DNA from: Malacoraja senta
Taxonomy: Eukaryota
DNA length: 60,000 nucleotides
Direction of reading: 5' to 3'
NCBI GenBank assembly: GCA_038087875.1
Contig: CM075989.1
Location: 13,642,001 to 13,702,000 of the forward strand
Shown here: piece after piece, positions 12,601 through 56,550 of the stretch
Layout: each line of letters opens with the position of its first letter
How positions within the stretch are numbered: position 1 is the first letter of the stretch
Translations under genes and position numbers: made by a program
Notes under the pieces: model-generated
Told to the model about the DNA's origin: nothing
The model's input: the letters and a program-made list of their open reading frames with translations, nothing else
Database searches by the model: none

Positions 12601-15600
12601 TAAAAATACAAACATGTAGGTAGAAACAATCATCTGGTTAGACAGCATCAGTCGAAAGAGAAACAGTTATTGTTTCAGGTTGAAGAGTCTTACATGAAAT
12701 GTTAACTATTTCTCTTTCCATAAATGCTGCCGCATCTGCTGAATGTTTCTAACATTTTCTGGTTTGGTTCCAGTGTTAACACAAAAACAGTGCAGCATTT
12801 TACACTGACACAAACACAGCGATCCATTCCAATGTTACCTGCTCAAGATTGTTTCTCCATTCTGTTGTTATTAAATGGAAATTAGATATATTATTCATCA
12901 CAGAATGTATAACCTTTACTTTTACCAAAAAAAGTTAAATTATCTTCTAAACGTGGGATACTTCAATATATATATCATTAATCTTAGGAAAGATTTAGAG
13001 TGATATGGGCAAGTAAGTGGCTCAATTAGAGAAAATAAGTTGGTTTTCAATAGTTTTCAGCAGCAGACAAGGTGGGAGCAGGATGGGTAAAACAAAGTGA
13101 ATATCTCTGATATTCCACATTGTCCAGCAATGTGGATTATATCCAGTGAAGGCAGAACTCTATGCTGTTTCTATAGAACTTCTGTAAGGTATTAGACTAG
13201 GGAAGAAGATTGGGAGTAGGAAAGAACTGCAGATGCTGGTTTAAATCGAAGGTAGACACAAACTGCTGGAGTTACTCAGCGGGACAGGCAGCATCTCTGG
13301 AGAGAAGGAATGGGTGATGTTTCGGGTCTGAAGAAGGGTCTCGACCCGAAACGTCACCCATTACTTCTCTCCAGAGATGCTGCCTCTCCCGCCGAGTTAC
13401 TCCAGCATTTTGAGTCTACCTTCGGCTCAGATGGACAGCTTGATTGGCATGGACAAGTTGGGTGAAGGGTCAGTTTCTGTGCTGTCTAAACCTGTGACTT
13501 TACAGATCTAATCTCCCAGTCCATGCTGTAGTCTACCGACAACTACCAGTGGCATGTCCGTGCATTTCCTCATGTCTGGTCATAAGGAGATACAGTTCAC
13601 AGAAGGTTTATTAGCTGCATTCCTGGAATGAGCAGCTTGAATGAGGAAAAGTTGGGCAGATTATGCTTATATTCAGTAGAGTTAAGAACAGCAAGAGGAG
13701 AGTTGATTGAGGTTTCTTTCCCCTGGAGCGAAGGAGGCTGAGGGGTGACCATTTTGAGGTAAATAAAATCACAAGGGGCACAAGTAAAGTGAATGGTTAG
13801 TCTTTTTCCCTGGGAAGGGGCGTCTAAAATTAAAGGACATAGATTTAAGGTGAGGGAGAAAGACTTAAATGGGACCAGAATGGCAGTCTTTTGAAACAGA
13901 GGGTGGTGGGTATGTGGAAGGAGTTACTAGAGGAAGTGGTAGTGAAGGGTACAAATACAAGGTTTAAAAGACATTTGGACAGGCACATGGTTTGGAGGGA
14001 TATGGGCCAAAAGCAGGCAACTTGGTTGACAAGGACAGTTCTATATAATTGTATGACTCAATGAAGTAATAAGATCCTGAGAGATCTGACAGGGTCAGTG
14101 TGAAGAGGATGATCTTCCTTGTGGGAGAATCCAGAACTAGGAGTCACTGTTATAAAATAAGGCTCGCCCTTTTAAGGCAGAGATGAGGCACAACATTTTC
14201 TCTCCGAGGGTCATGAATCGTTGGCACTCTCTTCCTCTAAAGATGGTGAAGGAATGAAACAGATAGAAACTTTCTAAGCAAAAAAAGTGAAAGGCAACCA
14301 GGGTAGGGAGTAAATCATGGTTGAGGTACTGCTGGAATACCAGAGCAGCATTGAGATGCAGGGGAAAAACAGCAGAATGAGAATGGAAAAAGTGGGACTG
14401 CCAGAGGAAAATCCAAGATGAGTACTGGGAAAGCAGGAATGCCAGCATGAGGATCTATTAATATCTAATGAGGGTTCGAGAAACCGCAGACACCATCTTT
14501 GCTTGTGAGATCACCTTCAGGAAAGCTTGCTTGTCTTCAGTCGTGAAGAGCACGTCAGTGGCTTCCATCAGTTCCTTGTAGCCATCCATGCTGTGCCCAC
14601 AGCTCACCAGCATATTGTACAACTTCTCCAGCTTCAGCTTCTTCTCCTCCTCTAGCCCCTGGCTCCTGTCCTCGAAACGCTGAACTAAGAACTGCATTAA
14701 GTCGTCGTACTGCAGTTCCAGGTAGTGCTCCTGTTTACCAATGTTCTCCTGTTGTTCAAACACAATGTGGTGTTAACAATAATGATGGAGATATCAGTGC
14801 ATCATTGAACTTACAAAGCCTTTGATTAAATCAGCGAATGGCAAAAATATTGGGCAGCCTCCCTGCATCTGTGCGAAGAAAATCAAAATGAACAATTTGG
14901 GTCTGAAACACTTCACCAGATATGGGAAAGAGAGAAAACCAATTGGTTTTCAATAGTTTTCAGCAGCAGACAAGGTGGGAGCAGGATGGGTAAAACAAAG
15001 GGAATATCTCTGATATTAAGAAGACAAACAAGATAATGTGGCAATTTGCTCTTTTATCAATGTTATGTGTTATTTATTGCAGGACTCTGGGACTTGTCCA
15101 GCAATGTGGATTATATCTGGCGAAGGCAGAACTCTATGCTGTTTCTATAGGACTTCTGTAAGGTACTAGACTGGGGAAGAAGATTGGGAGAACTGCAGAT
15201 GCTGGTTTAAATCGAAGGTAGACACAAAATGCTGGAGTAACTCAGCGGGACAGGCAGCATCTCTGGAGAGAAGGACTGGGTGACGTTTCGAGTCTGAAGA
15301 AGGGTCTCGACCCGAAACGTCACCCATTCCTTCTCTCCAGAGATGCTGCCTGTCCCACTGAGTTACTCCAGCAGAAGATTTGGGAGAGGCTGTTTGAAAG
15401 CAAGTACACACCTGACGAGTGGGAATTCTTTACAGGACCAGCATATTCCCGTGAGGATGAAAGACGAGGATGTCATGGTTTGGGAACCATGGATGACAAG
15501 AAATATACGGATACAGGGAATTGCAGATGCAGGTTTACAAAAAAAGACAAAGTGCTGGAGTAACTCAGCGAGTCAGAAAGCATCTCTGGAGAATGTGGAC

Positions 15601-20744: not shown

Positions 20745-21000
20745 GATCCGCTGAGACTGAGAGTAACCTAGCTGACCCGCTGTTACCTGGGCTGACCCAG
20801 GGTTACCTGGGCTGGCCTGCTGTGATCCAGAATTACTTGGACTGACTCGCTGTGCCCAGTGTTTGCTGGGCTAACCTGGGATCCCTGGGCTGAGCTGCTG
20901 TGACCTGCGCTCATCCGCTGTGACACTGGGTTACCTGCGTTAATCTGCCTTGACCTGCTGTGACCTGGGGTTACCTGGGCTGATCTGCTATGACCCAATG
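20745..21000. repeat. Degenerate ~10/20-bp tandem repeat (GTTACCTGGGCTGACCTGCT-like), resuming at 22555-22610 and 22783-22840
   Basis: Recurring TTACCTGGG, CTGACC and TGTGACC units. Confidence 0.7.
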
Positions 21001-21005
21001 TGTAT

Positions 21006-22555
21006 GAAGGAACTCCAGATGTTGGTTTAAATCGAAGATAGACTCAAAATGTTGGAGTAACTCAGCGGGACAGGCAGCATTTCTGGAGAGTAGGAATGGG
21101 TGATGTTTTGGATCGAGATCCTTCTTCAGACTGATGTCAGGGGAGTGGGAGGTACATACATATAGATACATAGAAAATAGGTGCAGGAGTAGGCCATTCG
21201 GCCCTTCGAGCCTGCACCGCCATTCAATATGATCATGGCTGATCATCCAACTCAGTATCCCGTACCTGCCTTCTCTCCATACCCCCTGATCCCTTTAGCC
21301 ACAAGGGCCACATCTAACTCCCTCTTAAATATAGCCAATGAACTGGCCTCAACTACCCTCTGTGGCAGAGAGTTCCAGAGATTCACCACTCTCTGTGTGA
21401 AAACGTTTTTTCTCATCTTGGTCTTAAAGAATTTCCCCCTTATCCTTAAGCTGTGACCCCTTGTCCTGGACTTCCCCAACATCTGGAACAATCTTCCTGC
21501 ATCTAGCCTGTCCAACCCCGTATTGGGGGTTCAGTATTTTGTAAGTTTCTATAAGATCCCCTCTCAATCTCCTAAATTCTAGCGATTATAAGCCGAGTCC
21601 ATCCAGTCTTTCTTCATATGAAAGTCCTGACATCCCAGGAATCAGTCTGGAGAACCTTCTCTGCACTCCCTCTATGGCTATAATGTCCTTTCTCAGATTT
21701 GGAGACCAAAACTGTACGCAATACTCCAGGTGTGGTCTCACCAAGGCCCTGTACAACTGCAGTAGAACCTCCCTGCTCCTATACTCAAATCCTTTTGCTA
21801 TGAATGCTAACATACCATTCGCTTTCTTCACTGCCTGCTGCACCTGCATGCCTACTTTCAATGACTGGTGTACCATGACACCCAGGTCTCGCTGCATCTC
21901 CCCTTTTCCTAATCGGCCACCATTTAGATAAGTCTGCTTTCCTGTTTTTGCCACCAAAGTGGATAACCTCACATTTATCCACATTATACTGCATCTGCCA
22001 AACATTTGCCCACTCACCCAGCCTATCCAAGTCACCTTGCAGTCTCCTAGCATCCTCCTCACAGCTACCCCACTAGTCACTGCCTGCCATTGTGAAAAGG
22101 ACCTGTTTACTCCTACTCTTTGCTTCCTGTTTGCCAGCCAGTTCTCTATCCACATCAATACTGAACCCCCAATACTGTGTGCTTTAAGTTTGTATACTAA
22201 TCTCTTATAAGGAAGCATACAGATAAGGAAGTGTAAGGTGTGAAAACAGGACAAAGGAAATGCAGAACTAGGAAAATGTAGACTAGATCATTGTTAGTTG
22301 GGGTAAGGTAACAACAAAGCAAACAGAGTTCAAATGTAGTCAAAGATAGTAAGACTGATCGGAGAACTGGAAAGGGGGAGGGGATGGAGAGAGAGGGAAA
22401 GAAAGTCAAATCAAGGCAAGAGAAGTCAAGAGAGTTTATTGTCATGTGTCCCTGACAGAACAATGAAATTCTTGCTTCTAGTTATAGTCAATGTTCATAC
22501 CGCTGGAGTGTAAGCTACCCAAGCGAAATATAAGAGGTTGTTCCTCCATTTTGAG
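21006..22555 (-). mobile_element. Penelope-like element 3' part, interrupted by a CR1 LINE
   Basis: Pseudo-LTR at 21006-21155; minus-strand KMEEQPLIFRLGSLHSSGMNID (GIY-YIG C-terminus-like) near 22485-22555. Confidence 0.65.
21166..22207 (-). mobile_element. Young CR1 LINE, 5'-truncated with an internal RT deletion
   Basis: Nearly identical to 56560-57712; [13 protein letters not shown] present; segment with the FADD motif absent. Confidence 0.9.
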
Positions 22556-22609
22556 CCTGGACCCGAGGTGACTTGCTGTGCCCAGGGTTACCTGGGATAA
22601 CCTATTGTG

Positions 22610-22782
22610 TTAAAGAAGGAACTGCAGATGCGGGAAAATCGAAGGTACACAAAAATGCTGGAGAAACTCAGCGGGTGCAGCAGCATCTATGGAGCTCTGA
22701 GGAAGGGTTTCGGCCCGAAACGTTACCTATTTCCTTCGCTCCATAGATGCTGCTGCACCCGCTGAGTTTCTCCAGCTTTTTT
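22610..22782. mobile_element. Palindromic Penelope-like pseudo-LTR unit with hammerhead-like core and 14-bp TSD
   Basis: TSD GATAACCTATTGTG at 22596-22609 and 22783-22796; core CTGAGGAAGGGTTTCGGCCCGAAACGTT at 22697-22724. Confidence 0.8.
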
Positions 22783-22839
22783 GATAACCTATTGTGACCC
22801 GGGTTCACCTGTGCTAACCCGCTTTGATCCTGGGTTATG

Positions 22840-23660: not shown

Positions 23661-26600
23661 GGTTCAGGTCTTTCAGGTTCCCCTATGATCTGTGTTTCTA
23701 TTTTCTTGCAATCGCAGTTCAGGAACTGATTCTTAGTTCTCAGCACGGAGGGGCCGAAGGTGAAGGCGTATACCTACCGGTTACAAAGTGCACACCGATT
23801 AGGGGCAGCGGAGTAAGGGATGGAACTAGCGTGCTGTCAGATGGGAATTTGATCCACAAGAATGGCTGACTTGTGCTCTGGCTATAGGGCTATTTACAGT
23901 GTGCGGCGCAACTTCACCGTGCGTCAATCGAGATTTGCAAACCAAGGTTATTGACATGTCTGTCCTTCATAATCCTGGTATTCGCCTGACCCTACCCCAA
24001 CACAGATGTACATGTTTGGCTTTGTTGTTTAATTATCTACTTCAATAAGTGCAATTGTTGATGCGATGTCAAGCTAAAAAGTTCTCAAATGGCTGGGAAG
24101 CGCTGACTAGGACAGTAAACCGCGGAGAGAGTGGTTCCTGCAGAAAACTTGTTGGAGGAGGAGAGTGTTGAAAAGAAGTTGCAGTTAGTGGAAATGACAA
24201 AGGATGATGTGCTGGGAGCAAAGTCTAGTAGGATAAAAGGACCTGGGGATCTCTATCTCAGTTCTGTCTGGGGAGGGAGGGGATAAAACCGCATGTGCAG
24301 AAAATCAGTTTGAAGGCTGGCAGAGGGGAAGCCATGATTCCACAGCATGAGAACGACATTTCAGAAGCCCTGGCATCTGGAAAGCCCTTGAACTGGAGAA
24401 ACTAAGGCAAAGGAATGGCACCTGTGTAAGAGACTGTGGGAGGAAGTGTGGACAAGTTAGTAGTGGTAGTTTATAGGTCTGTAGTAGATATTGTTGAATA
24501 AATTTTCTCCTGAAATGGAAACGGATCCAGAAAATGAAAAGTGTCAGAAATGTTCCAGGGAATTTGAGGGCATGGTGGAAGTTGGTGGAAATAGTGGTAA
24601 AAATGCCAAGTTCTGCACGAATGCAGAAAGCTGTAGCAACGCAGCTATCAAAGTAGCAGAGAATGAGTTGGAGAGTGGTGCCAGAATAGGTTTGCAACAA
24701 AGGAGGAATCAAAAGCAAAAGTTGCTGAGGGCGAAACAAGTTCTGCCAGGTGAGTGAGAGTTGGCATCGGGGAATTGGTTGTGTCTTTGTTCCAGAATGA
24801 AACCGAATCCTAAGGCCTTCCTGATCGGGGATGGTGCTTGGGACTGGACATCCGTGATGAAGATGAGGCAGTTGGGACCAGGGAATTGAAAATTGTCAAA
24901 ATAGTGGAGGGCAGGAGAGGTGTAGGTGGGAAGGGACTGGACATTGGGGGACTGGATAGAGGCAAGTCACGAAGAGAGAGGTTCGGCAAGGCAAGAGCAG
25001 GCAGAAACAATGAGCCCACCAGGATAGACCTGTTTGTGGATGGTCTACTATGTTGATTAGAATTCAGTGTTGTACTGAAACAAAGTTGGTGAGAGGTTCA
25101 ACTGTTTTTAGTGTGGGTCTTCAGTTGGGATGTTGTCTGACCCTGTGGTCCTTTGCTGTGTCCAGTACTCCCAGCTTTGTCTTGATATCATTGGAGTAAA
25201 TTGAATAGGGTACAGACTGGCATCTGTGATAATGAGGTTATCTCGAGGACCATCACAGTTTAGTCAATGATGGTGCTGATAGGCCATAGCTGAAGAAGAA
25301 CATGGTTTCCCACCTCTTTAATCTTTCATCTGAATACTGTCCAACATGGAGGAGCACTGATACATCAGCTGAGGGAGGATGGTCTAGTGTTGTCAGGAGT
25401 TTCCTGACCCGAAGACTACTTCTAAACCACCGTCATGCATGGGGCATCTGTTCTGCTGGTGCTACAGTGTGCACAGGATTTGTGAATGTCCGTAAAGTAT
25501 TCTGCGAGTACAACTATTGTCGGGCTGTTGCTGTTCTGTGGACTTGTCCACCCAGCCTCTTAAGGGATACCCACAAATGCTCTCTTCTCTGGGCTGCGTG
25601 TATGTGTTATTTTTATAATGTAATTATTCTGTGAAGGCTCTGGCCTTGGGTTGTGTTAAGGGGCCAATTGTCAGCTGCTGATTTTGCTAGGATGACTTTC
25701 TGTTTTCCAGATCTTGAACCAACACATTCAAGCTAAGAATCTGGTAACCCTTAAAAGGTTCTACCTGGAGGAAGATGAAGCCTATCAGGAGCTGGTCACT
25801 GCCGCCACGCAATTCTACCAGTGTTTACTGCAGCCTTTCCGGGATATGCGAGAGTTTGCCTCGCTGTGTAAACAGGAGGCATTGGTAATTCATGCAGTTG
25901 CTGTTTATTTCTTAGGGATGCTGCACTTTAACTAATAGTTTTAATTAGAAGCAACAGTCAGCCGTTAAGCAGTAGCTTTAGCAGTAAAGGGACATGGTTT
26001 GGGTTGCAGTACAATCAAAGGCTACAAATCTCTGCTGGCTGTAATCAGCTTGGTCAGCCAGTGCCTGCTCTTGAGAATCTCTGAAGCCACAGTCACTGGT
26101 GGAGGAGGAATTGCATCACAGTGGTACAGCTGGTTGTGGTCTTCAGTAGATTATGTGGGCCCTGATTTAGGACTATCTGTTGCTGACTGCCCACAATGGA
26201 TTTGGTTCAATTTCTTTCAGATTTTGAAGGATATTAATAATTTGTAAAATTCATTATTTTGAGTGCTTGTGCTCAGCTCAGGATGGGAACACATGTGAGA
26301 CTAATGAAGTGTTCCTTCTGAGGGCCACAAGGGGGCAAGTTTATTATGTAATTTGTGTTGTGAGAGTTCACCCTGGGTCAAACCAAAAGTACATTTTTGA
26401 GTGCTTCCATGCTTGACCATAACATATATACACAGTCGGGAGATCAGTTGCCTTCATCCAATATGACTTTCTGATCTAACTTGACTGAAGCTGCCGGAAG
26501 GGGGAGTGGACGCTGGCGCGTATTAGCAGCCGCTGCTCTCTCTTCCATACTGTGTTTTTGATTTTTGTGTTCGGATTGAATTCTGTTTTTAATTTGTGTA

Positions 26601-33508: not shown

Positions 33509-34565
33509 TCTTTTATTGTCATTGCACGTCAGTGCAATGAGATTTAGTATGCAGCTCCACCGATGTACAAGAAAAGTAAAATAAATAAATAAGCAAGCAA
33601 GCTGAGTGACGTGACCATCCGAGGGAGACTGTCCAGGAGGGGTGGGTGGGGGGGCACTCAGCAGGGCCGGTTCAGAGCCGCTATAGCTCTTGGAATAAAG
33701 CTGTTTCTGAGTCTGGAGGTTCGGGCGTAGAAGGCCTTGTAACGTCTGCCGGAGGGAAGTAGTTCAAACAGTCCGTTACAAAGGTGTGATGAGTCCTTCT
33801 GGATGCTGACGGCCTTCCTGAGGCACCGTGTGTGGTAGATGCCCTCCAAGGCTGGTAGCTCTGTCCCAATGATCCTCTGTGGACGACGCGCTGAAGAGCT
33901 CTCCTCTCCGCCTCTGTGCAGCTGAGATACCACACAGAGATGCCATACGTTAATATGCTCTCTGTGGTGCAGCGGTAGAACGTTGTCAGCAGCTTTTTTA
34001 ATGTCCTCAGGAAGAACAGTCGTTGCTGTGCCTTCTTGACCAGCGCAGCGGTGTTGGTGGACCATGTGAGGTCCTCTGAAATGTGAGTGCCCAGAAACTT
34101 AAAGCTGGACACTCTCTCCACACTTTCTTCGTAAATGGAGATTGGGGCGTATTCTCCATTATGGGACCTCCTGAAGTCAATAATCAGCTCCTTGGTCTTG
34201 GAGGTGTTTAGTGACAAGTTGTTATGAGCGCACCAGTCCGCCAGGTTCTGCACCTCCGCTCTGTATTTTGTTTCATCACAGTTGGTGATCAGCCCAGTCA
34301 CTGTTGTGTCGTCTGCAAACTTCACGATGGTGTTGGTGTCGAATGCAGGGACACAGTCGTGAGTGAAGAGGGAGTAGAGCATGGGACTTAGTACACAGCC
34401 CTGTGGTGTGCCGGTGCTCAGGGTGATAGTGGAGGACAGGTGCGGGCCCAGTCTCACTGCCTGCGGTCGCTCCGTCAGAAAGTTCAGGATCCAATCGCAT
34501 ATCGGCGAGCTGAGGCCTAGTTTGGTGGTGAGCTTGGTGGGGATGACCGTATTGAATGCAGAGCA
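33476..34565 (-). mobile_element. Rex1/Babar-type LINE, 5'-truncated, with RT domain
   Basis: ORF 33681-34457: [22 protein letters not shown]...IVKFADDTT...FKFLGTHI; 3' AATAAA plus (TAT)n tail. Confidence 0.88.
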
Positions 34566-35694: not shown

Positions 35695-36550
35695 ACATAA
35701 GAGACTGCAGATGCTAAAATCGTGAGCAAAATAACAAACTGCTGAGGAACGTAGCAGGCCAGTCAACAAAGTGGAGGGAAATGTTCAGATGACATTTTCA
35801 GTCAGGACCCATTTTCAGACTGATGGAGTAGAGGGCAGAAATCTGGTGTAGAGAGGCAAGGGGTAGGGATGGTCAAGAGATGGGCCTGCTGGATACTCTG
35901 GTTGCTCGCCATTTTAATTAGTCTGTCCTCGACCTCCACCACTCCAGACTGAAGCCACACACCAACTAGAAGAACAGCACCTTGTATTCCATTTGGTAGC
36001 TTGCAATCCAACGGCAGGAACATTGAATTCTCCAATTTCAGGTAGCTCGCCGCCCTTTCTTATACCCAGTTTCTCCCCACTCTCGTTCATGCTTCCCACT
36101 ACCCCAACCCCCACCCCCCTTCCCCCCCATTGATGCTATCACTGAATTATTTTCCCCACCCCCCACCCCCACATTCATCCCTCCTACTCCATATTCTTCC
36201 CCTATTTTCCTTCTCCCCACCCCCTCCTGGTCCCTTCCACACACTCTTCCCACCCCCTGGTTCTCCGTCTTCCTCCACACCCTTTCTTATCATATTCCAC
36301 TTTTGCACATTTGATTTCCCTCACCTCCAGCCTCGGTTACTATTTCCACCCATCTCTCCTCCACCCGCATCATTTGCTAATCAACTCCTCACTTGAATCC
36401 ACTTTGCTAGTTCTTGCCACAGCCCTACCCCTCGGCTTTCTTCCCTCTACTCCATTAATCTGAAGAAGAGTCCTGACTCAAAACGTCATCTGTCCACATC
36501 CTTCCAGATGCTGCTGCCCAGCTGAATTCCTCCACAACTTGTTTTTTTGC
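35695..36550 (+). mobile_element. Penelope-like element 3' end with inverted 5' pseudo-LTR
   Basis: LEEQHLVFHL..SLQSNGRNIEFSNFR* near 35965-36045; pseudo-LTR with CTGAAGA at 36460; inverted pseudo-LTR at 35695-35825. Confidence 0.7.
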
Positions 36551-42300: not shown

Positions 42301-45300
42301 CTCACCCCTTCCCCTAAATGTCACAAAACCATTCCCCCACTCCTCACGTCCCAAACTAACCAGCCCTGAGCTAACCCGCCTCTAACCATCCTCCCTTCAT
42401 CAGCCGCATCCCATCTCACCCCCACCACTTCTCCAGCCATCCCCCTCACCATCACGACGTGTTCTTGTGAAATAAGGCAGGGCAGGTGACTGAACTGTCA
42501 GTGCCAGAGCACAGTTTCAATTTGTTTTAAAATAGTAATGGAAAAGTTCTAATTTAGGCCAAGGCCAACTTTGATGGTATCAGACAGGAACGTACACAAG
42601 TTGATTGCTGGCAAAAGAATGTCCAGAAGGTGGGGTGCTTTTAAAAATGTTATAGCCAGAGTCCAGGGTATGCATGTTCCGGATAGAGTGAAAGGCAAGG
42701 CAGGTAATTGTAAGGAGCCCAGGATGATGAGAGAAATTGAGGCACCAATCGAGACAAGGGAGGCAAAGGTCAGATATACACAGTTTGGATTAAGTGTATC
42801 TCTGGAGGAGTATTGAGAAGCATACTTAAGAAGGAAATCAGTGGGACAAAAGAGGGCAAGTGATACTATGTGTTTTAAGTTTTGGTCAGCCTACTATGGG
42901 AAAGATGCCAAGTGCAATGTACATGAAGATTTACAGGATATAGCCGGGGCTCGAGGTATGAGCTATGGGCAGAGGTAGGGCAGGCTAGAAATGTCTTCCT
43001 TAGAGCACAGGAGAGGGAGGGATGAACATAGAGGGTGTGTAAAATTGAGGGGAATAGATAGGCTGAATGCAATCTTTTCCCCCCAGAGTAGGGGAATCAA
43101 GCACCAGAGGGCCTCGTTTTATGATGAGAGGGGAATGATTTAATAGGAACTTGAGGGGCAACAGTTTCCACACATAGGGTGATGTTTATTTTGAATAAGC
43201 TGCCAGAGGAGGTAGTTGGGGCAGGTACAATAAAAACATTTACAAGATATTTTGACAGGTAGATAGGAGTGGTCGAGAGAGATATGGGCCAAACTCTGGC
43301 AAACAGGACAAGCTTAGATGGGTAACCCTGGTCAGCATGAATGAGTTGTGCCGACAGGCCAGTTTCTGCGCTGTACAATGCTATGCCCCCCCCCCCCCCA
43401 AAATAGTGGTGACAGTTAATCTCCATCGTGTGGTGCCAGATTGTGAACCCGATCCACTCACTGACGTCTGCCCACAATGACGGGGTGGTTGGCAATTGCT
43501 AGGGTGCTCAGTTTGAGTAGAGGCTCAAAAACACGCAGGTGGTTGCGAGGCCAAACATCAGTCCCAGATGGGGGCTGGTGGACAGTGAAGTCCCTGCTCT
43601 ACACTGCCTCCCCCCCCCCCCCTCCCTCTGCAGACTCACTTGATCCGGTGGTTGTTACTCTTCAGGAGGGATTCAATAGTGGACCGGCCATCGCCTTTCT
43701 CATCGTTGGATCCATTCACACTCGATGCTTGTGGTGAGGTTGGGGGCTCATGACTGGACTCCTGAAATAAACAGTGTAGAACCGGTGAAACCACAACCCA
43801 GGAACATATCCTTCAGTCTTATGGTCTTGTTACCTTTTGTTGTTGTGTTAATGTGCCCGTGAAGCTGCAGAATGGGTGGGACTGTAATGCACGGCTCGTC
43901 CCAGACACCCAGTTCCTCGCTGAGGCTACTGGAGCCCCTGTAAGAGCCCCTCTTTGAAAACGGAGAGAGGGCAGTGTGGAGTGGTTGGGTGGGGGCCCAT
44001 GGAGGGACGGGACCTAGTGATAAGTCACGGGTCGACAGGTAGATGATTGGCCAGCGAGGGCAGAGGTTTAACTAGAAATGCTGCTAAACCGTTGTACTCA
44101 CTGGCCAATGAACGAGTGCAAAGACTTGCCGATCACGGAGCTACTGAGCTCATTGCTGTCCCTCCTCCCTGCCCCGCATTACGCCCACCCCCCAGCTCTG
44201 TCACGCACCTGGGAGTGGGTGCTGCAACTCTCTGCCTCCTGTGAGCGGTCCCTCGCCAACCTCGCCGCCTCCTTCACCTCCTCAAACTTCTCGGCGAACT
44301 GTAACACAGTGAAGGGGGGGATGCAGACACCACGCCCAGCACGAGGTTAGTTGAAGGATCAGAGGCTCCTCGCACCCACCTTCTGCGATTCCCTCCCCTC
44401 CTCTCGTAATCCTCCTCCCTCCCCTCTATTCTCCCCCACCCCCACCCCCACCCCCGTGCACCCCTCCTCCCTCACGCCCACCTTGCTCAGCTGCTGCTCT
44501 GAGGGGAAGCCCAGACCAAAGACGGTGTTCGCTCTGCTGTCTGCCCACTGGCCGAACTTCTGTGAGGTTTTGCTGAAGGTCATGTTGGGGGTGACAGTGC
44601 TGTTCACGACCACCTGCGGGAACACGCACTCGGCTCTTATTCAATAGCTCATCCTTCTCACAAAGCCAGTCCCCCAGTCTCCACACCTCACCTCATGCCC
44701 CCCCCCCCTCCCCTCCACGAACAGGCCCAAAACCCGCCACACACCCCTTGTTCTAGACACCCAACCAGGGGAAACATCTTCTCTCCCTCCCTCCCTCTCT
44801 GTCATGGCCACATAGAATAAAGTTATACAGCATGAAATCAAGCCCTTCAGCACAACTTGCCCATGCTGACCAAAATGCCCCATCTATGCTAGTCCAAACG
44901 TGGCAGGTGGGACTATATCCCTCTAAACCATTTCTATCCATGTACCTGTCAAAATATCTTTTAAATGTTTTAAATGGATTTTGTAACTTTCAATCAGATT
45001 CTCCTTCATTCTTAACTCCAGTGAATACAAACCCAATCAGTTCTGTGTCTGCTCAGAGCTACAATGCTGCCATCCCAGGAGTCACAACCTTCTGGGCAAT
45101 CTCTCTCTGGCAGGTATTTCCTGTCTTAGGTGAGCCAACCAATTCTGCGTACAATACCAGAGATACAATTGTACAGAGTCTTGGTGAGATTGTGAGATGT
45201 CCTTGCTCCTGGACTCAAGTCACCTTGCAGTGAAGGCCGACATATCTGTTCCCTTTTTAACTGCTTACTATACCAACGTTTGGTTTTAGAGTCTGGTAAA

Positions 45301-46977: not shown

Positions 46978-47013
<36 letters not shown>

Positions 47014-50000
47014 CAATACCAGTCAGGAATGTATGACTGTTTCAGTTCCTGCATTGATTCCTTAAACATTAATTATTGCTCTTCCACTGTCATTACTTTC
47101 CAAGGAACCTCCCAACCCCCATCACAGCTAATTAATTCATCTGTACATCCCTCTGTTTATATTTAGGATCCTAGATTTGGATTGAACTTCTATACTTTCC
47201 AGTCTGCCATGTTATGGTCATTCTTCCTTAATGGGCCACCGGACAAGATGAGTAAATCCCATCTATAACCAGTCTAGGATAGTCTTTTCTTTATTTAAAG
47301 GCAGCAGGCTGGATCACTACAGGCCAGTGGTGAAATTATTGGAGAAAATTCTAACTGACAGGATTTACATACATTTGGAAAGACAGGGACTGATTAGGGA
47401 TAGTCAGCATGGCTTTGTGATGGGGAAAATCACATCACATAAATCTGACCATTTTTTTGAGGAGCTAATTTTGATGGCATTTGACTGGAATAAAAAAAAA
47501 ATTTGGGAGGACATTAGAAGGTTATAAAAAGTCTGGCAAGAGGGAGACTTTTAAGAATGAGCTAGGGGGAATTCAGGGCCAGCATGCAACTGTCAGAGTG
47601 GCAGGATTTGAGAACCTTGGTTGATGAGAGGCCTTGAAGCTCTAATGAAGAAAAAGGTGCATGCTAGATATAGGTAACAGATCATGCAAATCCCTTGAGT
47701 ATAGGGAATGTACGAATATGCTTATGAGTGAAATTAGGAGAGCAAAGAGGGTACATATTTGTCAGATAAGGCAGAGGAGAAGCCCAAAAAAATTAAATAC
47801 TTTAAAAGCAAAATGCAAGGGGAACATAGTATACATCCTCGCCCCAGAGTCATACAGACACGCACCTATCTAAATGTCTTTTAAATGTCGACAACATACC
47901 TGCCTCTACAGGTTCTTCTGGCAGCTCATTCCACATGCAAACCGCCATCTGTGTGAAGAAATTACCCCTCGGGTTTCTTTCAAATCTTTCCCCTCTCATC
48001 TTTCTGGAGCCACTGGAAATGGGCAAGGTTTTAAATGGATATTTCTCATCAGTATTTACTGCAGTGAAGGTCGTGGAAGGAAGGGATTTCAGGGAAGTGT
48101 ATTGTGATGTCTGGAAACATGTCCACATCAAAAAAGGTGGTGCTGGCAGTCTTAAATGATGGATGAATCCCTGGGGCACCAACCTGGAACATTGTGGGAA
48201 GGTCGGCCCCTAGCAGAGATATTTACATTTCTTTAGCCACAAAAAGTCTTCTTCTGTCTTGTGTCGTGTGTCTTTTAGACCTGCAGATCCGTTGAGGCGA
48301 GCCAGGCCAACGTGTCATCGTCCAGGTCAATAAGATCTCGTTCACCATTCGGTGGCCGGTGTTTGGGGCAACTGGTGACTATGTGCTCCACTGTCTGTGT
48401 TGGGTCCCCACACTCGCAGGAGGCGCTGGCTGTCCACGAGGCCCCACCTCTTCATCGCTACTCCATAGTGTCCGATGCCTGTCCTCAAGCGGTTGAGGGT
48501 TGTCCACTGCTTTTGGGGCAGGTCCTGGCCAGGGACGCCCATGGGGTCATCGATGTAATGATGTAGCCTAGATGGTTCCGCTGACTTCCACTGGTCTCTC
48601 CTTCTCGTCTTGACCCAGGCAGCCTTAGAAGCGTCAGCCGGTGTTGTGCAGAGCAGCTCTTGGGCTTGCGTGGCAAAGGGGTGCCGTGACTTGAGGCGCA
48701 CTCGTCGTGGTGTCTCTGTGACGATCTGATGGAGGAGGTGGGATTCACTGGTGTGTGCCTTTCGAGAGAGGGAAGCGTCCCACGACATGAACGTCATGGT
48801 GGATAACGCCCGATTACGGTCCCAGCCTGTCCCCACGTACCTCGGCGTGAAGCTCGACAGAACGTTGTCATTCAAACAACACCTGGAAGGTGCCAAGGCA
48901 AAGACAAGCGCCCGTGCCGCACTGATTCGCCGCCTAGCCGGCACCACATGGGGAGCCACGACGAAGACACTGCGCATGTCCACAGTGGCCCTGGTGTTCT
49001 CAGCCGCCGAGTACTGCGCCCCGGTCTGGTGCCGTAGCCCTCACGCCAAGAAGCTGGATGCTGCCCTCAACAGCACCCTGCGGACTGCCTCCGGATGCCT
49101 ACGAGCCACCCCAGTAAACCAACTGCCCGTCCTCGCTGGCATCGCCCCAGCCAACATCAGACAAGAAGCAGCCACAAAAAGTCTGTAAGACTGGAAATTG
49201 GCTAATAGTGACCCTTTATTGAAGAAGGGCTGCAAGGAAATGTCTGGGAGCTGCAGACTGGTGAGCCTTACTTCCATGGTGGGCAAGTTACTGGAGGGGA
49301 ATCTGAGAGACAGGATCTTTGTGCGTTTGGAACAACAAGGACTGATCAGGGGCATTTGTTTTCTGTGTAGGAAATTGTGCCTCATGACTTTATTTTTAAA
49401 CAGTGACCAAAATAATTGATCCTGTTCTAATTCAGACAGAGGGTGGTGGGTGTATGGGATGAGCTGTCAGAGGAGAGAGTTGAGGCAGGTACAATAACAA
49501 CATTTAAAAGACATTTGGAAGGTACATAGATAGGAAAGATTTGGAGGGATGTGGGCCAAATGGGACTAGCTTGTGTTGTATCTCAATGATGAGGGCAGTG
49601 CAACCACAGCAAGGATTTTGACAGATCTCACATGGTAGGCTGGTCTCAAAGGTTAGATCACATGGGATCCAGGGTGAGCTAGCCAATTAAATACAACATT
49701 ACCTTGGTGGAAAGAGCCAGAAGATGGTAGTGATGGATTGTTTTCCGGATTGGAGGTTTGTGGCCACCAGTATGCCCCAGGGATTGGTGCTGTCCACTGT
49801 TCTTGTCATTTATGTTAATGACTTGGATAATATAGTTCATGTGGCCTCAGATAACATTAGCAAAGACCGCTCAGAACTCCATCATTCTCTCTACTGAGCT
49901 ATGGGGAGAGGTCGAGTAGGCTGATTTCTATTCCTTGGAGTGCAGGAGGATGAGGGGTGATCTTATAGAGGCGTATAAAATCATGAGAGGAATAAATCGG

Positions 50001-51964
50001 ATAGATACACAGAATCTCTTGCCCAGAGTGGGAGAATCGAGGACCAGAGCACATAGGTTTAAGGTGAAGGGGAGGTAGTTGAGGCTGGAAGTATCCCAAC
50101 ATTTAAGAAACAGTTAGACAAGGTACATGGATAGGACAAGTTTGGGGGGATATGGACCAAACACAGGCAGTGGAACTAGTGTAGCTGGGACATGTTGGCC
50201 GGTATGGGCAAGTTGGGCCGAAGGGCCTGTTTCCACATTGTATCACTCTATGACTCCCAGCAAAAATACACGTGGTCACAGGGAGAACAAGCAGACTTGA
50301 CAGATAGCACCTGAGGTCAGGATTGATCTGCGGGGCAGCAGATCTACCAGCTGGGCTAATCTCCCCCATATATTTTATACTCTTATTTATTTTCACTTCT
50401 GCTCTACCACTTGTGCTCATGCATGCCAATGATATGCCAAGATAGCATGCGAAACAAAGTTATTCCACTGTATCTTAATACACATGGCAATAATAAACCA
50501 ACACCACTGCAAAATGCCTGAAGTTCCACATCACCAGGTTCAGGAACAGCTACTTCCCTACTACCATTCAGCTTTGACTGACTTGCACAACACTAATCCT
50601 ATCTCAGCAACAGAACACTATGGATGATCTCTTGCACAACCACAGAGCTTTAAAAAAATTATGCAAAAAACATGACATTGGTTGAAACTAGTTTCTTTCA
50701 AAAATGTCTTGCAAAAATTGTGTCAATGATATTTAATTTATGTTTAGTGTGTGGTCCGAGTCTATATGCCAGTAATGCTGCTGCAAGCTCGATGTTCATT
50801 TACCTGTACCTCACTGTACTTTTGCATATGATCATAAACTTGACTTGTTGGAGTCTGGAATCTGCCAGAGAGAGGTAGGTCCAAATATAGTGTTCCAGAA
50901 GGAGCTGATTAGTCTTAGGAAGGAGAGGATTTGCAGGGGTGTGGAAAAGGATCTGGCTGGTATTGATTTGATGGGCTGAAAGGCCCACTTTCACACTCTA
51001 ACCTCCCCATAGTAAAGGGAATGCAGTCAATAAGCAGAGGCTTGGTGTGAAATGTTTGTTCTGAGATTATATCCATGGTCTGTGACACCCCCACAAAAAT
51101 CACACACACTTCAGAGCCTGTTTTAGCTCAGAGATATCAGCATGCAAAATGATGTAACCATGGCAACACAGCAAAAGATACCTTATTCCTAGTCATCCAG
51201 TCCCAGTTCAATTGCATTCAAGGTAAAAGCCTCTCCCGGGTTCCTTCAACACTGTCCTCAGCCGCACCATCATCCTACCTCCGCTGTTACTTCCAATGCC
51301 ACAACTCATGCCTCTTTTATCCTACGGACCCTCCCATCTGCCCTGGACCTGGCCTATTACCCACCCTCTGTCTCAACCTCCAAGGCCACTCTCATTATCC
51401 TACCAGATCACTCACCCTCACTCTGGACTTTACACACCTTGTCCCTCCCCTCTATGGCCCCTTAACCTCACTCCCAAGGTCCCTTGACCCCTGTTGTTCC
51501 TCTGCCTTTCCCTTTACCCTTTGGTCCAATCCTTCTCCCCCTTGCAGGCCCCACTTCTATTGGGCCTGCCCCCAGCGCAGCAACCACCCCCCCCCAACCT
51601 CTGCCACTTTCCTCCAGCTGTTACCAACCTGTCCACTCAGACATCAACTGCAGGTGAAAGCATCTCAGTTTGTGCACCTCAGTCCTGCCGCCTCAGCCCT
51701 GCAGATTCTCCCACCCTCGCCCCCATTCACCATCTCTCTACATTTTCCCAGTCCAGCCACCCGCCGTGCCGCCAACCCACGGCCCCTTGTTGCCTCCGAC
51801 CCCTGACCTTGGCTCCATCCACGCTGATGATGCGATAACTGTTCCTCGATCCATCGAAGAAGTATGAGACGGTGAGCGGGTATTTGCCGGAGGGCAGCCA
51901 GTTCCTCTTGGTGGTGGGGTCGATCTGGAAGACATGAGCTTTGCTGGTGAAGATCGGCTGCTCG
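39136..51964 (-). CDS. HOMER2: Homer scaffold protein 2, spliced gene span, exons 2-9 (short ATG-bearing exon 1 not located)
   Basis: Exons 51808-51964, 44482-44613, 44209-44298, 43640-43761, 41853-42003, 40692-40802, 40034-40114 and 39136-39324 join in frame. EVH1 domain ([33 protein letters not shown]) plus C-terminal coiled coil ([19 protein letters not shown]). Synteny with WHAMM and FSD2 supports the HOMER2 paralogue. Confidence 0.9.
39575..39840 (+). mobile_element. tRNA-derived SINE (HE1/V-SINE-like), older copy
   Basis: GGTGGCGCAGC..AGAGTTGCTGCCTCACAGCGCCAGAGACCCGGGTTTAATTCC and GTTTCCTCCCAC, homologous to 12183-12502. Confidence 0.8.
40034..40114 (-). CDS. HOMER2: HOMER2 exon 8
   Basis: ccacag|[27 protein letters not shown]|gtaagc. 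Confidence 0.88.
40692..40802 (-). CDS. HOMER2: HOMER2 exon 7
   Basis: ctgcag|[37 protein letters not shown]|gttggt. Confidence 0.87.
41165..41810. mobile_element. hAT-type non-autonomous DNA transposon
   Basis: 8-bp TSD CCTCCCAC at 41157-41164 and 41811-41818; imperfect short TIRs CAGGGGCGGAA / TTCCGCTCTTG; subterminal GGGGACA motifs. Confidence 0.8.
41853..42003 (-). CDS. HOMER2: HOMER2 exon 6
   Basis: ccccag|[51 protein letters not shown]|gtgagg. Confidence 0.87.
42480..43385 (+). mobile_element. Decayed CR1 LINE fragments
   Basis: [19 protein letters not shown] coding remnant and CR1 3' tail. Confidence 0.65.
43640..43761 (-). CDS. HOMER2: HOMER2 exon 5
   Basis: tttcag|[42 protein letters not shown]|gtgagt. 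Confidence 0.83.
44209..44298 (-). CDS. HOMER2: HOMER2 exon 4
   Basis: ttacag|[30 protein letters not shown]|gtgcgt. Confidence 0.88.
44482..44613 (-). CDS. HOMER2: HOMER2 exon 3 (EVH1)
   Basis: ccgcag|[44 protein letters not shown]|gtgggc. Confidence 0.93.
45640..46130 (+). mobile_element. GC-rich retroposon 3' end with (TATC)n tail
   Basis: Internal ~39-bp tandem GCGACGCCCATGTCGGGGC units; ends AATGACAATAAAGGG(CTAT)n. Confidence 0.55.
48250..49169. mobile_element. Vingi/Ingi(I-group)-like LINE insertion with 5' inversion, nested in a CR1 remnant
   Basis: Plus segment [32 protein letters not shown]; minus segment [22 protein letters not shown]...HIVTSC; 15-bp TSD AGCCACAAAAAGTCT. Confidence 0.8.
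49895..50255 (+). mobile_element. CR1/HER1-type LINE 3' fragment
   Basis: Close match to 1210-1650, with an internal deletion. Confidence 0.8.
51808..51964 (-). CDS. HOMER2: HOMER2 exon 2 (EVH1)
   Basis: ttccag|[53 protein letters not shown]|gtcagg. Confidence 0.93.
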
Positions 51965-54689
51965 CTGGAATGGAGTGGGAGAAGGAGGTCACCACTGAGT
52001 CGACAACAGATGTGATGCAAATACAGACACTACCAAACTTGCGCAATAGGCAACTTACATTGAATTGAATTGAATTATTTGCTTGCATAAACCAAGGTGG
52101 GCAAATAGTCACCCAAAAAGGTCGCTTACAAAGTTACAAATTACACCCCATGCCAGGTCCCCCTTTGTTCTCCCCCCCCTCCCCACGGCGGTCCCCACAC
52201 ACCGAGTCCTCCATTGTCTATTACGTAAACTCGCACTTACGTTAAAATTTCTGTACTCAGTGCAATCAAGGCAGTTTGTAATTTCCACAACACTATGATC
52301 ACTCAAGTTTATATTGGAAACAAGCCAGCAATGGCGGCAGTGCTTACCCAGAAGGCCTCGTGCTGCTGGATGCAGTTGAGACCGTTAATACTCCCAGTAA
52401 TGGACACAAAGTGCTGGAGTAACTCAGCAGGCATCACTGGAGAAGATGGACAGGTGGTGTTTTGGGTCGAGGCCCTTCTTCAAACTCAGTGCGTTATTTT
52501 GGGCAGGAGATAGGGATGATGATTCAGACTTGTGTAAAATCTGACTTACACAGGTGCTCACGGAACATAAAGGAATTGGGAGCAGGCTTTTTTCAAAGCC
52601 TGGCAAGTGATAGGAGGATACAGTTGAGAGGGGTTTTGTTGGTTGTTGGGTGGACAAAGTTTAGAGATGAAAAGACAGAAGGCAGTGAGATAAAAAGTGA
52701 AGCCAAAGGAAGGATTTAAATGGTAGCCACCCCCCCTTCCCCCCTCACCAAGCAGAGCAACCAAGTGAATAATTCAGTGAAACGGGATCAGATCACCCTG
52801 CGAGCTGTGCTGTGAATTATTGATGCAGGGAGACCAGAGGGAGGGAAGGTTACTGGGACTTGGAGCTTGCCCACGCTGCCAGTTGGTACAGAAGATGTTA
52901 GGGAGTGAAGGAGGAGCAGAAGTGTGGTGGAATACCCTCCAGTTATGGAGGATGGAGCCAGGATGGAATCTGCCCCAAAATTCTCAAAGCTCAACACCAA
53001 GCAGAACAAACCACAATGACTCTAAACATTCATCCTCTTCTTGTCATCTGTGGCATCTACAAAATGCACTGCAGTTCCTTGTTCAGGTGCCTCTGACTCC
53101 ACATCTCAAACCTATAAGCTCAGCCACCAAAGACAAGGGCAGTTGGTACAAGGACAATCATTCCCTGTAGCTACCTTCCAAATCATTCATCATCCCTACT
53201 TGGAAATATATAGGTGGTCATTTATCTTCTGTAGGTCTAATTCTAGGAACTCCCAAGGACCTAGAATTAGGTCCAATACCACTAGTAACGGCTTTGAACT
53301 AGGATTTCCAATGAGATGAACAAACCCTGGATTTAGATAACAGACAAACAAGGCAAGTTCCTGCAACCTTCTGCTGAGAGTTTGAAACCGATCTCGCACC
53401 CAGTATCTAGTCAGCCTTGATCAAAAACAAAGTTAAAAACGTTGAGCTTTTTTTGTAGATTTAGTGTTTTTGTGTTGATTGCTGTCTAAAATACGTCACC
53501 AGCTCAACTGAATGGCATCTTACTGCTGTGGATCAAGGTATGCACCTAATGCCAACAATTGGATGAATGGAGATACACAAAAAGAACAGTAGGCTGAAGG
53601 GGTTCTGTGTTGTACGACTCTGACCCCATTGCTGGAGATGCACAGATCCTGGAGAGGTGGCAGACTGAGAGTCTGGGCTGTAACCACTTCAGACCTGGTG
53701 CTGCTGTCAAGCGTCATGTAATTGGGAAAGGGGCACAAGGGAGGTTCTGGCAATTGAGAGCAAGGAGCATCTATTGAAGAGGAGGTACGTCTGTACGGGG
53801 ATACTGCAAACAGAGAGATGCAGAAAAATGTGATGTATTAATTGCCACACACCCTCTGTAAAAGCAGGTCAGCCCAAAGTCATGGTATGACAAGGTTGCT
53901 GACAGCTTGAATGCCATGATATTAGCTCCCAATATTGTCCAGCAGTGAATCAAGTTCAATAACTCAGAGGAACTTTGTGAGGGTAAGAATAAGACTCTTC
54001 CTTCGAAGCCCTTGACACCTCCCTCCCTTCCCACAACCTCTATCTTCCCTTCAAATCCTCCTCATTCTACCCCTCGACATTCACCGGGCTCCACAGCTCA
54101 ATGGCTGCATCATGAACGACATTCTCCAAACACCATGTGACTAACATACCAGGGATATGTGTACAAAAGACTTATTAACCTTGTGTAAACCATTCAGTTG
54201 AGCTGGTGACATACTTTGGACAGCAATCAACACAAAATCCACGAAAAAAGCTCAACGTTGTTAGCTTTGTTTTTGATCAAGGCTGACTGGACACGGGGTG
54301 TGAGATCTGTTCCAAACTCTCAGCAGAAGGTTGCAGGGACTGCCAGTAAACAGTCCACCTGAACCGTGGGAGATCAGTTGGACCATGTCATACTTTGCTG
54401 AACAGTAAGCCTAAGGCGTGGTAGGAGATGTTAGGCAATGACTGCCCACAGGTAATGTCCAAAACAGCACCAAGGGGGACTTTAAAAAGTGATCTGCCAT
54501 TGGCTTTTTGGCCTCATTTCTGCTAACCTCTCTCTCCAACTGTGCAGGTGAGAGCAGAATAGTTCACACACCAAACACTAGACCTTCAAAAAGGTCAAGG
54601 CTTTTAGTTTTGTTTTTGCTATTTCCAATCAAACTTGTTGGGAAATAGAGAGTATGGATTGTTTGTTAAACCTGGTGTTCAGATAAAAT

Positions 54690-54825
54690 GTTTAAGAAGG
54701 AACTGCAGATGCTGGAAAATCGAAGGTAGACAAAAGTGCTGGAGAAACTCAGCGGGTGCGGCAGCATCTATGGAGCTCCATAGATGCTGCCGCACCCGCT
54801 GAGTTTCTCCAGCACTTTTGTCTAC
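54690..54825. repeat. Pseudo-LTR-derived unit with a perfect 100-bp palindrome (54726-54825)
   Basis: GTAGACAAAAGTGCTGG...GGAG|CTCC...CCAGCACTTTTGTCTAC; flanked by GTTCAGAT(A/T)AAAT repeats. Confidence 0.9.
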
Positions 54826-56295
54826 GTTCAGATTAAATCGCCAGGGCAGGCCTGAACTACAGAATCCATCAGCGCCACATACTGCCCAGCAGGAACCCAC
54901 TAATGACTGGCTGTGGCATTAAACAGTTTGCAGAGCCAATGATAAGTAAGTGTTGTCATGCTGGGCTGAATCCATTGCTCCGATTCCTCTGACATACTGA
55001 GCCTGCAGTAAGCGCACTGCTGCTTTCAGTATCCAAGGATGAAGACAGGAATAGTATGATGCACTGATCATCTGCTCCAGGTGACAGCGCTACAGAAAAT
55101 CCCCCAAATTAATGATCTTGGCATTTCGTATCTGGGACCATTTTGGGCACAAGAGAATGACAGCAGAACAGATGCCGGAAACTTGAGTGAGATCGCTGGA
55201 CCAAGGTACACCAAGGCTCTGTGATAAAGATGATCCACTCTGGACCACATGTTCTACACTGACCACAGACCAGCATTCATGCCATCCCCCTAACCCAGTG
55301 TACAGGGAGCTGGCAGTTGTCCCTGGCAGAGTCTGCTCACCACTGCCCGACTAATCCATCTGAAATCACCAGCTGCATCCATCCAGATCAAATTCACCCC
55401 TTCCCACAGTGAGGCTAGAACGACAGCACTGGTTGCTACAGGAGCCTAATTTGTGGGTGGCACACAGAACATAGAATGGCACAGACAGCCTCCCTGGGTG
55501 TGAGGCTGCCAAGTTCAAACAGTTTTGGAGTTTCAAGGTCAGAGAAGGAACAGATTGGGAGGTAGGTAGGGAGGGGGGGAGGGAGGGGGGGGAGAAGGGA
55601 GGAGCCTGCCCGTGACTGCCCGCCAACAGTCCTCCAGCTTACAGCTGCATCACCGTCGCACACAAAGCAGCAGCCGATGGCATGTTCTCTATAAATAACA
55701 TTGACTCTCTACTGAACTGCTCTGGGACATTGAGCTGTGATCAAAAGCCTGACAGGAGGCAGCTCAGAATCTAACATTCCTCCAAATCAGTTCCCTCCAT
55801 TAACACAAGAACTAGCTGACCTGGTAACAAGACAATGATTTTCTTGGAAGCAAATAGAGGTGTTATAATCCAAGAATGTTCAAGCTTACTGATAACATGG
55901 CAAGAGATGTGTCAGCCAAAAGTGCAGACATTCTACTTTACACCACACGGGGATCATTAAGGCACAGATGGTGTCCTACTGACATGATACACCTGACACC
56001 AAGCCACAGCAACTCTGGGCAAATAGACTGGTTTTAAGGATCTTCTTAAAGTGAGAGAGGCTCTGAGCTCAGCCTTGGCAGCTGAAGGCACAGCCACAAT
56101 GGCAAATTGTCTACCTTCAGAGAGAAACCAGAGATTGTGGGACTGCCAGTGGGGCTGTGAGAGGGAGGGGCAACGCCACAAATCCTGGGGTTGAATGTTT
56201 AGAATCCAGGTTGTGGGTATATGGAAGGAGGTGCCTGAGCAAATAGTTGAGGCAGGTGCAATAACAACATTTAAAAGACATTGGGGCGGGTATAT

Positions 56296-56550
56296 GTTTA
56301 AGAAAGAATACAGATGCTGGAAAAATAGAAGGTAGACAAAAATGCTGGAGACACCCAGCGGGTGAGGCAGCTTCTATGGAGCGAAGGAATAGGCGACGTT
56401 TCGGGTTGTGACCCTTCTTCAGACTGATGGGGGGGTGGCAGGAAAAATAAATGAAGAGGCGGAGACAGTAGGCTGTGGGAGAGCTGGGAAGGGGAGGGGA
56501 AGGAGGGAGAAAGCAAGGACTACCTGAAATTGGAGGTGTCAATGTTCATG
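56296..56550 (-). mobile_element. Penelope-like element 3' end with hammerhead-like core (56395-56422)
   Basis: Minus strand MNIDTSNFR*, then CTGAAGAAGGGTCACAACCCGAAACGTC and the pseudo-LTR. Confidence 0.7.

Follow-up and report, generated by a model that had tools for sequence, protein, structure and literature searches.

A window of 60,000 nucleotides from the genome of Malacoraja senta (NCBI GenBank assembly GCA_038087875.1, contig CM075989.1, positions 13,642,001–13,702,000; window coordinates below count from its first base) carries a dispersed family of hammerhead-ribozyme motifs, which an earlier note, made from the sequence alone, had described as a self-cleaving RNA sitting in host introns. 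These motifs are very probably the hammerhead terminal repeat (pseudo-LTR, pLTR) of a Neptune-type Penelope-like retrotransposon (PLE), scattered as short 5′-truncated insertions that are likely inert today. Because the stubs begin just before the ribozyme and not at its cut site, the element was likely copied from uncut, unspliced RNA, and its templates were likely copied twice, from two priming sites. The several hundred thousand insertions amount to a natural primer-extension experiment. Positions in the repeat are numbered from the C of CTGA (+1), with cleavage placed after +28.

The parent element and its abundance

In the 1.94-Gb genome, one exact 28-mer of the repeat was counted 18,728 times, compared with 0 for the control. 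A 1.03-Mb sample comprising five blocks on four contigs yielded 372 family matches (reversed control, 0); the nine exact 28-mers in this sample scale to 17,000 genome-wide vs. the 18,728 counted, and the sample is therefore representative. Extrapolation from it gives ∼0.6–0.7 million genome copies, in line with the very high copy number supposed in the earlier note. Copies have a median length of 97 nt, with 180 of 205 no longer than 160 nt, and a 21-mer spanning the junction of the pLTR with the open reading frame (ORF) has only 44 exact copies.

Walking upstream of the motif led to an element encoding a reverse transcriptase (RT) and an endonuclease, with Pfam matches in related natural copies to RVT_1 (E = 8e-6) and GIY-YIG (E = 3e-4), neither of which reaches the gathering cut-off. 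The order RT then C-terminal GIY-YIG was present in four loci (L101–L104), and no copy examined had an unbroken ORF. A full-length natural copy (L101:1588–5597) has the organization pLTR-ORF-pLTR, its parts being pLTR, RT, Cys linker, GIY-YIG and pLTR; the linker between RT and endonuclease reads Cx4CxxC, and a CX2-5CxxC linker marks the Neptune and Nematis clades (10.1101/2021.04.23.441226). The family has the features of endonuclease-bearing (EN+) PLEs, i.e., pLTR-ORF-pLTR or partial tandem arrangement, inverted pLTRs, a tail on one side only and a target-site duplication (TSD). The motif lies in the terminal repeat, as had been claimed, 100–220 nt past the stop codon and behind a pyrimidine tract and CAG. 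Short and ORF-bearing copies carry the same subfamily variants. Protein-coding constraint on the hammerhead region was ruled out by a frameshift between subfamilies there and by an ATG located past the tail.

Several long loci had peculiarities of their own. The N-terminal part of the ORF (L101:2560–2790 and L061:2533–3510) contains a variable tandem repeat, in 24-nt units in L061, whose length differs by copy. Seven small-contig loci (L085, L089, L093, L094, L096, L098, and L100) are 98–99.7% identical over 3.4 kb including their flanks, and may represent either a recent multi-copy segment or assembly redundancy. A tandem array at G000:C1:4000001–4036000 (L161–L164) has a period of ∼2.45 kb and ∼14 units, each with one plus and one minus family copy whose motifs are mutated.

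Copy ends, templates and competing explanations

Copies were anchored downstream of the cut site, which avoids selection for the motif itself; references were trimmed and duplicated flanks collapsed, reducing 359 copies to 328, 205 of them at ≥85% identity. Among the 110 copies that reach the 5′ edge of the hammerhead, 68 have their 5′ end at −5 to +2 (11% per nt), compared with 4 of 168 at the cleavage site, +27 to +32 (0.4% per nt). When only non-inverted copies were counted, the edge held 48 of 85 (p = 5e-29) and the cut site 2 of 106, against 4.4 expected from background. The pile-up at the edge is visible in all five sample blocks on the four contigs. At most ∼7% of templates end at the cut site. 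Edge copies have no flank in common, the pyrimidine fraction of their flanks is 0.50 vs. 0.81, and 25 of 48 have a TSD of at least 8 bp vs. 0.65 in controls; they are therefore true truncations and not unrecognized subfamilies, joined to their targets mostly by 1–3 nt of microhomology. Once past the edge, cDNAs are processive, and upstream of the predicted splice donor the 5′ ends are scattered from −41 to −880 (30 loci). Several family copies are located at the 3′ ends of CR1-like elements or inside them.

The region upstream of the hammerhead is a predicted intron, its weak donor overlapping the stop codon and its pyrimidine tract and CAG acceptor adjoining the hammerhead 5′ edge; the pLTR intron of Drosophila virilis likewise ends at helix I (PMC4209133). 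These donor and acceptor signals are common to subfamilies whose introns, of 100–220 nt, are otherwise unlike. We counted 8,865 unspliced donors and 0 spliced junctions, and no spliced genomic copy with 17 nt of upstream exon was found. Of 1,612 copies with WYTTCAR in front of them, the first 100 were read by eye; exon-like sequence never exceeded 11 nt (two copies with 11), and most of the 100 were palindromic junctions. A start just upstream of the donor was not seen either: all of the first 100 of 6,326 copies listed extend further upstream, one with a deletion.

At the other end, 3′ ends form two clusters, at +88–96 and +128–132. Many short copies reach 50–145 nt into the 5′ region of the ORF, and 5′ pLTR-ORF RNA was therefore used as a template. 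Of 14 pLTR-ORF junction copies reaching the edge (all 44 junction loci covered, a doubtful alignment at L363 excluded), 7 stop there, a rate incompatible with 95% stopping (p = 2e-6), compatible with 60% (p = 0.59) and the same as that of other copies. Inverted pairs numbered 39, 32 of them classifiable; 30 of the 32 consist of one tailed and one short arm, the other two of two short arms, and none of two tails (p = 1e-7). Perfect palindromes centered on the hammerhead edge (TCAG.CTGA) numbered 482, and palindrome centers vary from insertion to insertion.

These patterns speak against a template generated by hammerhead cleavage, as proposed in PMC4209133, at least where the copied RNA is concerned, and they make an antisense template (PMC3846280) unnecessary. 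In the sequence of events that we favor, the endonuclease would nick both target strands, 8–15 bp apart, and reverse transcription would begin at two internal sites, one per nick. The cDNAs would halt ∼55–60% of the time at the hammerhead 5′ edge, most likely where RT is blocked by factors bound to the 3′ splice site or pyrimidine tract. A single cDNA would then be joined to the target via microhomology, and an inverted insertion would result where two cDNAs anneal at short palindromes (TCAG.CTGA, helix II, GAGC.GCTC); the hammerhead, although presumably retained in source elements, would not be the cutter of the template. We infer, as the preferred cause of the 5′ stop, that proteins sitting on unspliced RNA at its acceptor or pyrimidine tract block RT, which fits a constant 55–60% stopping. 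The patterns of ends, splicing and arms fit the biochemistry of the anole element, for which both strands are nicked and extended in vitro from two internal start sites with unprocessed RNA as the main substrate (PMC11167929), as well as the one-sided tail, inverted pLTRs and junction palindromes already known.

A more speculative extension, to which we give little weight, is that the minimal hammerhead serves to pair RNAs and not to cut them: its palindromic ACGU helix III would join two unspliced nuclear transcripts, and a dimeric RT-endonuclease would prime cDNAs at +130 and +93 from two nicks, both arrested at a spliceosome-bound acceptor. If true, one mechanism would explain why introns are retained, why tails are one-sided, how head-to-head inversions arise and why a barely active ribozyme is conserved.

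The motif itself is, as the earlier note had recognized, a minimal type I hammerhead with a vestigial palindromic helix III. Core (C3–A9, G12–A14, and U16.1–H17), bulge, helix II and the palindrome 15.2–16.2 are all present, fitting the description in PMC4209133. A minimal descriptor matched 56 times in the 1.03 Mb vs. 0–1 times in five shuffles, with 15 of the 56 in one satellite; an Rfam scan gave no match to hammerhead models and only sub-threshold hairpin models on inverted arms. Helix I has 2 contiguous bp in three subfamilies; 4–5 bp would be expected of a minimal hammerhead, and 2 bp of the D. virilis variant. U-A/U-G variation at its pair 2.1–1.1 preserves pairing (72 and 31 of 121 copies), one helix II pair varies between U-A (91), U-G (12) and C-G (3), and the remaining helix II pairs decay only. 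In folding predictions, helix II has a pairing probability of 0.00 in the window copies at 13328 (+) and 15294 (+), because helix II, GAAAC and GTC are taken up by pairing with their inverted left arms; the copy at 22697 (+) is predicted to fold otherwise (helix II, 0.00), and that at 56422 (−) reaches 0.5–0.6. The dimeric hammerhead fold is predicted at about −6 kcal/mol vs. −26 to −29 kcal/mol for competing dimers. All core bases are intact in 56 of the 121 copies that span the motif, and G12 is altered in 34 of 117, decaying at the CpG rate. Dimers of minimal hammerheads were reportedly seen to cleave by Lunse et al. in 2017.

A related organism's poly(A) RNA contains the motif in abundance (14,056 reads), and read depth at the cut site is flat and equal on both strands with neither a dip nor a pile-up of ends, weak evidence given that the library is fragmented. 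Along L035:1300–2091 in run X24, reads from the endonuclease region are 2–3 times more often first-mate plus than minus, and those from the hammerhead region are balanced; should the X24 library be stranded, long copies would have an antisense bias in transcripts that short copies lack.

Four other explanations were weighed against these data. The 5′ stop may be a transcription start, a possibility that we take seriously although we doubt it: TCAGTC would be an initiator (Inr), helix II and GTC would double as motif ten element (MTE) and downstream promoter element (DPE), and the short copies would be run-off cDNAs primed near the RNA 5′ end. With A(−2) taken as +1, the repeat matches Inr at 6/6 positions (5/6 in one subfamily), MTE at 8/10 with a perfect CGANC at +18–22, and DPE at 4/5, with exact spacing, and an equally good match occurs at 1 of 3,178 non-family Inr sites (consensus from PMC5580651). 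Penelope has an internal Inr + DPE promoter (PMC2377424), and the short copies running into the ORF indicate that 5′ pLTR-ORF RNA is in use. However, the promoter test was post hoc and had a CpG-poor background, and several of the matches are dictated by the hammerhead core; Penelope transcription starts 46 bp upstream of its intron (PMC2377424), and the 7 of 14 junction copies that stop at the edge are far from the 95% used for comparison. Counts by eye of a cap-derived extra G ranged from 33 of 100 (p = 0.11) to 53 of 100 (p = 0.03), palindromic junctions inflating the higher figure. The short copies could also be a self-propagating non-autonomous family (a short interspersed element, a miniature inverted-repeat transposable element [MITE] or a retrozyme) and not truncated products of the full element. 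Sharp 5′ and 3′ boundaries, TSDs, the possible internal promoter and the very high ratio of short to long copies implied by the 44 junction 21-mers speak for this reading, which is nevertheless improbable: 5′ ends tail continuously into the intron and ORF, palindrome centers differ by insertion, subfamily variants are common to short and ORF-bearing copies, and no tandem arrays of intact motifs were found, the sole array being the 2.45-kb satellite. Least probable of all is an origin of inverted insertions from one cDNA that snaps back and primes itself at the TCAG.CTGA palindrome, self-priming having been proposed in PMC3846280. The 482 palindromes centered there and private variants common to both arms in several loci speak for it, but it dictates which arm is longer relative to the asymmetric center base. 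In the 30 of 482 palindromes examined, the longer arm fell on either side in the proportions 20:9:1, so that 9 of 30 loci have the forbidden side; a single snap-back cDNA cannot give this unless repair or conversion later switched the center bases, and the model was rejected, whereas two cDNAs annealing over a one-base mismatch fit. The 5′ stop is also equally strong in non-inverted copies.

The reading of the earlier note, in which dispersed copies are active ribozymes cutting host pre-mRNAs as monomers or dimers, is also improbable. In its favor are the 56 of 121 copies with every core base kept, the excess of descriptor matches over shuffles, the abundance of the motif in poly(A) RNA, and one window copy, 56422 (−), that is sense to HOMER with a helix II predicted to be formable. 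Against it stand the 2-bp helix I, the far more stable competing dimers, the flat RNA depth over the cut site and the neutral, CpG-rate decay of G12. Single minimal hammerheads showed no cleavage and dimers hardly any (PMC4209133), and the anole hammerhead requires an element protein to cleave (PMC11167929). Intronic copies in a small gene sample were 16 sense and 18 antisense, without sense depletion. With two of the other intact window copies antisense and predicted to be locked in inverted arms, the third upstream of WHAMM, and no cut-site excess of genomic 5′ ends, the claim of a self-cleaving motif acting in host introns is not supported.

Some observations nonetheless weigh against the retrotransposon account as we prefer it. 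The edge at which the putative roadblock lies also fits the Inr/MTE/DPE spacing. The predicted donor is weak, and its joint with the acceptor is absent among the 15 joints listed (412 more) in RNA of the related organism. Cleaved RNA could exist without being copied, since the 5′-end data bound templates only. Outside CpG, core positions differ less (52 of 1189, 4.4%) than non-core positions (97 of 1425, 6.8%; p = 0.008), as expected from selection on source elements, and selection on some copies would be compatible with the same figures. The assignment to Neptune, finally, is taken from a single feature, the linker motif.

Copies, genes and other repeats in the window

The pattern CTGANGA-N4–30-GAAAC matches the window 5 times vs. 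1.38 expected, and none of 100 shuffles reached 5. Four matches are the intact family motifs already reported at 13328 (+), 15294 (+), 22697 (+), and 56422 (−), and the fifth, at 30411, is a chance non-family match. Every one of the seven motifs called degenerate belongs to the family by alignment and departs from the core in at least one position: G12>A at 11243, 21132 (−), 36460, 38465, and 52484 (−), U4>G at 31219 (−), and G8>A plus G12>A at 35822 (−). The family is indeed the most frequent repeat of the window (self-BLAST depth 15 vs. 10 for the runner-up), with further copies that the first reading overlooked at 5143–5214 (−), 5819–5866 (+), 12682–12758 (+), 15514–15592 (−), and 54687–54834. 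Also unnoticed were the head-to-head inverted insertions of which 13328, 15294, and 22697 form the right arms. Of three copies said to follow a GIY-YIG-like C-terminus, two do: an endonuclease piece at 35945–36045 (+) runs into the motif at 36460, and the last nine endonuclease codons (56549–56523, −) run into that at 56422 (−). The third piece (22487–22552, −) is an isolated C-terminal fragment of the same element; no motif comes after it, and the 22697 motif lies on the other strand.

Genes in the window are a minus-strand gene bearing a SPRY domain, WHAMM on the plus strand from 23064, and a minus-strand HOMER gene with EVH1 exons at 51817–51960 (−) and 44482–44652 (−); we take the first to be FSD2-like and the last to be HOMER2, partly by synteny. 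The copy at 22697 (+) is not intronic and lies ∼340 bp upstream of the WHAMM start codon, and the one copy inside WHAMM is antisense and core-mutated. The supposition that the 56395 copy is sense to HOMER2 pre-mRNA is borne out by the shared strand, and this is the only intact window copy both sense to its host gene and free to form helix II.

The first inverted insertion (13216–13425) has a tailed left arm on the minus strand (+16 to +128) and a right arm on the plus strand (−1 to +98) with a core-intact hammerhead (13328–13355, +) that the 82-bp inverted arm is predicted to sequester and that is antisense to the FSD2-like gene. The second (15190–15373), with a TSD of at least 8 bp, likewise contains a core-intact, antisense and predictedly sequestered hammerhead (15294–15321, +) and shares its left flank with the first. 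The two copies probably represent one insertion event, because they have ∼290 bp of duplicated flank plus element in common (92%); flank and insertion form a local duplication (12900–13430 and 14800–15380, 92–95%) inside the FSD2-like gene. The third (22608–22790; left arm +42 to +129, right arm 0 to +93; 14-bp TSD) holds a core-intact hammerhead of the UUCG-loop subfamily (22697–22724, +) with a U-G closing pair and a GUU triplet. It sits at the edge of a CpG island common to the head-to-head WHAMM and FSD2-like genes and could form a long hairpin if transcribed. The single 5′-truncated copy at 56296–56549 (−) spans −133 to +128, comprising the nine endonuclease codons, the predicted pLTR intron (56424–56523, −; CAG acceptor 1 base before the hammerhead core), the core-intact hammerhead (56395–56422, −) and the tail.

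An inverted insertion without hammerhead (54687–54834) has both arms beginning at +42 and ending at +131 and +100, with TSD-like flanks; an older one (35795–36534) joins degenerate motifs at 35795–35822 (−) and 36460–36487 (+) around the endonuclease piece, and a degenerate one lies at 38401–38541. Degenerate single copies lie at 11227–11338 (+), 20998–21158 (−, tailed), 31128–31224 (−, in WHAMM, 5′ end −5), and 52403–52489 (−; C3, G12, and U16.1 changed; sense to HOMER, upstream of a HOMER EVH1 exon), and the copy at 5143–5214 (−) is truncated within helix II (+20 to +91). An older RT-region fragment of a related PLE, 60–68% identical, occupies 24089–25041 (−) inside WHAMM. Unrelated repeats include an element at 8103–9551 whose inverted termini measure 226 nt (94%) and whose open frame at 8652–9341 is transposase-like, which we take to resemble Tc1/mariner; MITE-like elements at 53356–54341 and 28409–29308 with inverted termini of 113 and 82 nt; and RT fragments of long interspersed elements at 56746–58281, 33681–34565, and 48342–49188, presumably CR1-, L2- and RTE-like by their motifs. 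A large class of short, hairpin-forming repeats in introns and promoters of this genome is thus PLE debris, and not microRNA precursors or regulatory ribozymes.

Comparison with known systems

The motif resembles the minimal hammerheads of metazoan PLEs (Cervera and de la Pena, 2014, PMC4209133) in its CUGANGA core, the bulged base before helix II, the G-C first pair, the palindromic 15.2–16.2 without loop 3 and the pLTR location, as well as in the predominance of single truncated copies, dual copies on opposite strands and a predicted intron end adjoining helix I as in D. virilis. It differs in having a helix II of 4 bp (7–8 in schistosomes, 6 in D. virilis) and a helix I of only 2 bp, and its copy number is far above the 4,000–9,000 reported for coelacanth and Xenopus. 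With the Neptune and Nematis EN+ PLEs (Craig et al., 2021, 10.1101/2021.04.23.441226; Arkhipova et al., 2013, PMC3846280) the element has in common an RT, a CX2-5CxxC linker and a GIY-YIG at the C-terminus, 5′ truncation, head-to-head inverted copies, a 30–40 bp tail at one end only, 8–15 bp TSDs, junction palindromes and retention of an intron, here a predicted one. Unlike in those accounts, most copies here measure ∼100 bp, the 5′ stop at the hammerhead edge is quantified, and the pairing of arms favors two cDNAs made from sense RNA over self-priming on antisense RNA. Craig et al. (2021) leave open the role of the hammerhead in EN+ PLEs and the reason for intron retention; the insertions bear on both questions, pointing to templates that are uncut and unspliced, to start sites each used once per inverted insertion and to one defined stop.

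The anole Poseidon element PAc (Frangieh et al., 2024, PMC11167929) similarly has two internal RT start sites that define the tail, extension of both strands and insertion without hammerhead cleavage. It belongs to another clade. In the present element the hammerhead precedes the likely start codon, and the evidence here is genomic and not biochemical; exact positions are now available for mutation in the existing in vitro PLE system. A literature search found no report of the 5′ stop, of the arm-pairing test or of cartilaginous-fish PLE hammerheads, although one might be contained in subscription papers or in the PMC11167929 supplementary figures. The type of element, its motif and its architecture were already known, and the quantified 5′ stop and the arm-pairing test are the addition. 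Non-LTR retrozymes (PMC7229834; 10.64898/2026.07.22.740005; reviewed in PMC6765202) also carry a type I hammerhead in a repeat derived from a PLE pLTR. Retrozymes, however, form tandem arrays whose units each have an intact type I hammerhead, with canonical motifs and circular RNA, whereas the copies described here have minimal motifs and occur as dispersed monomers or inverted pairs.

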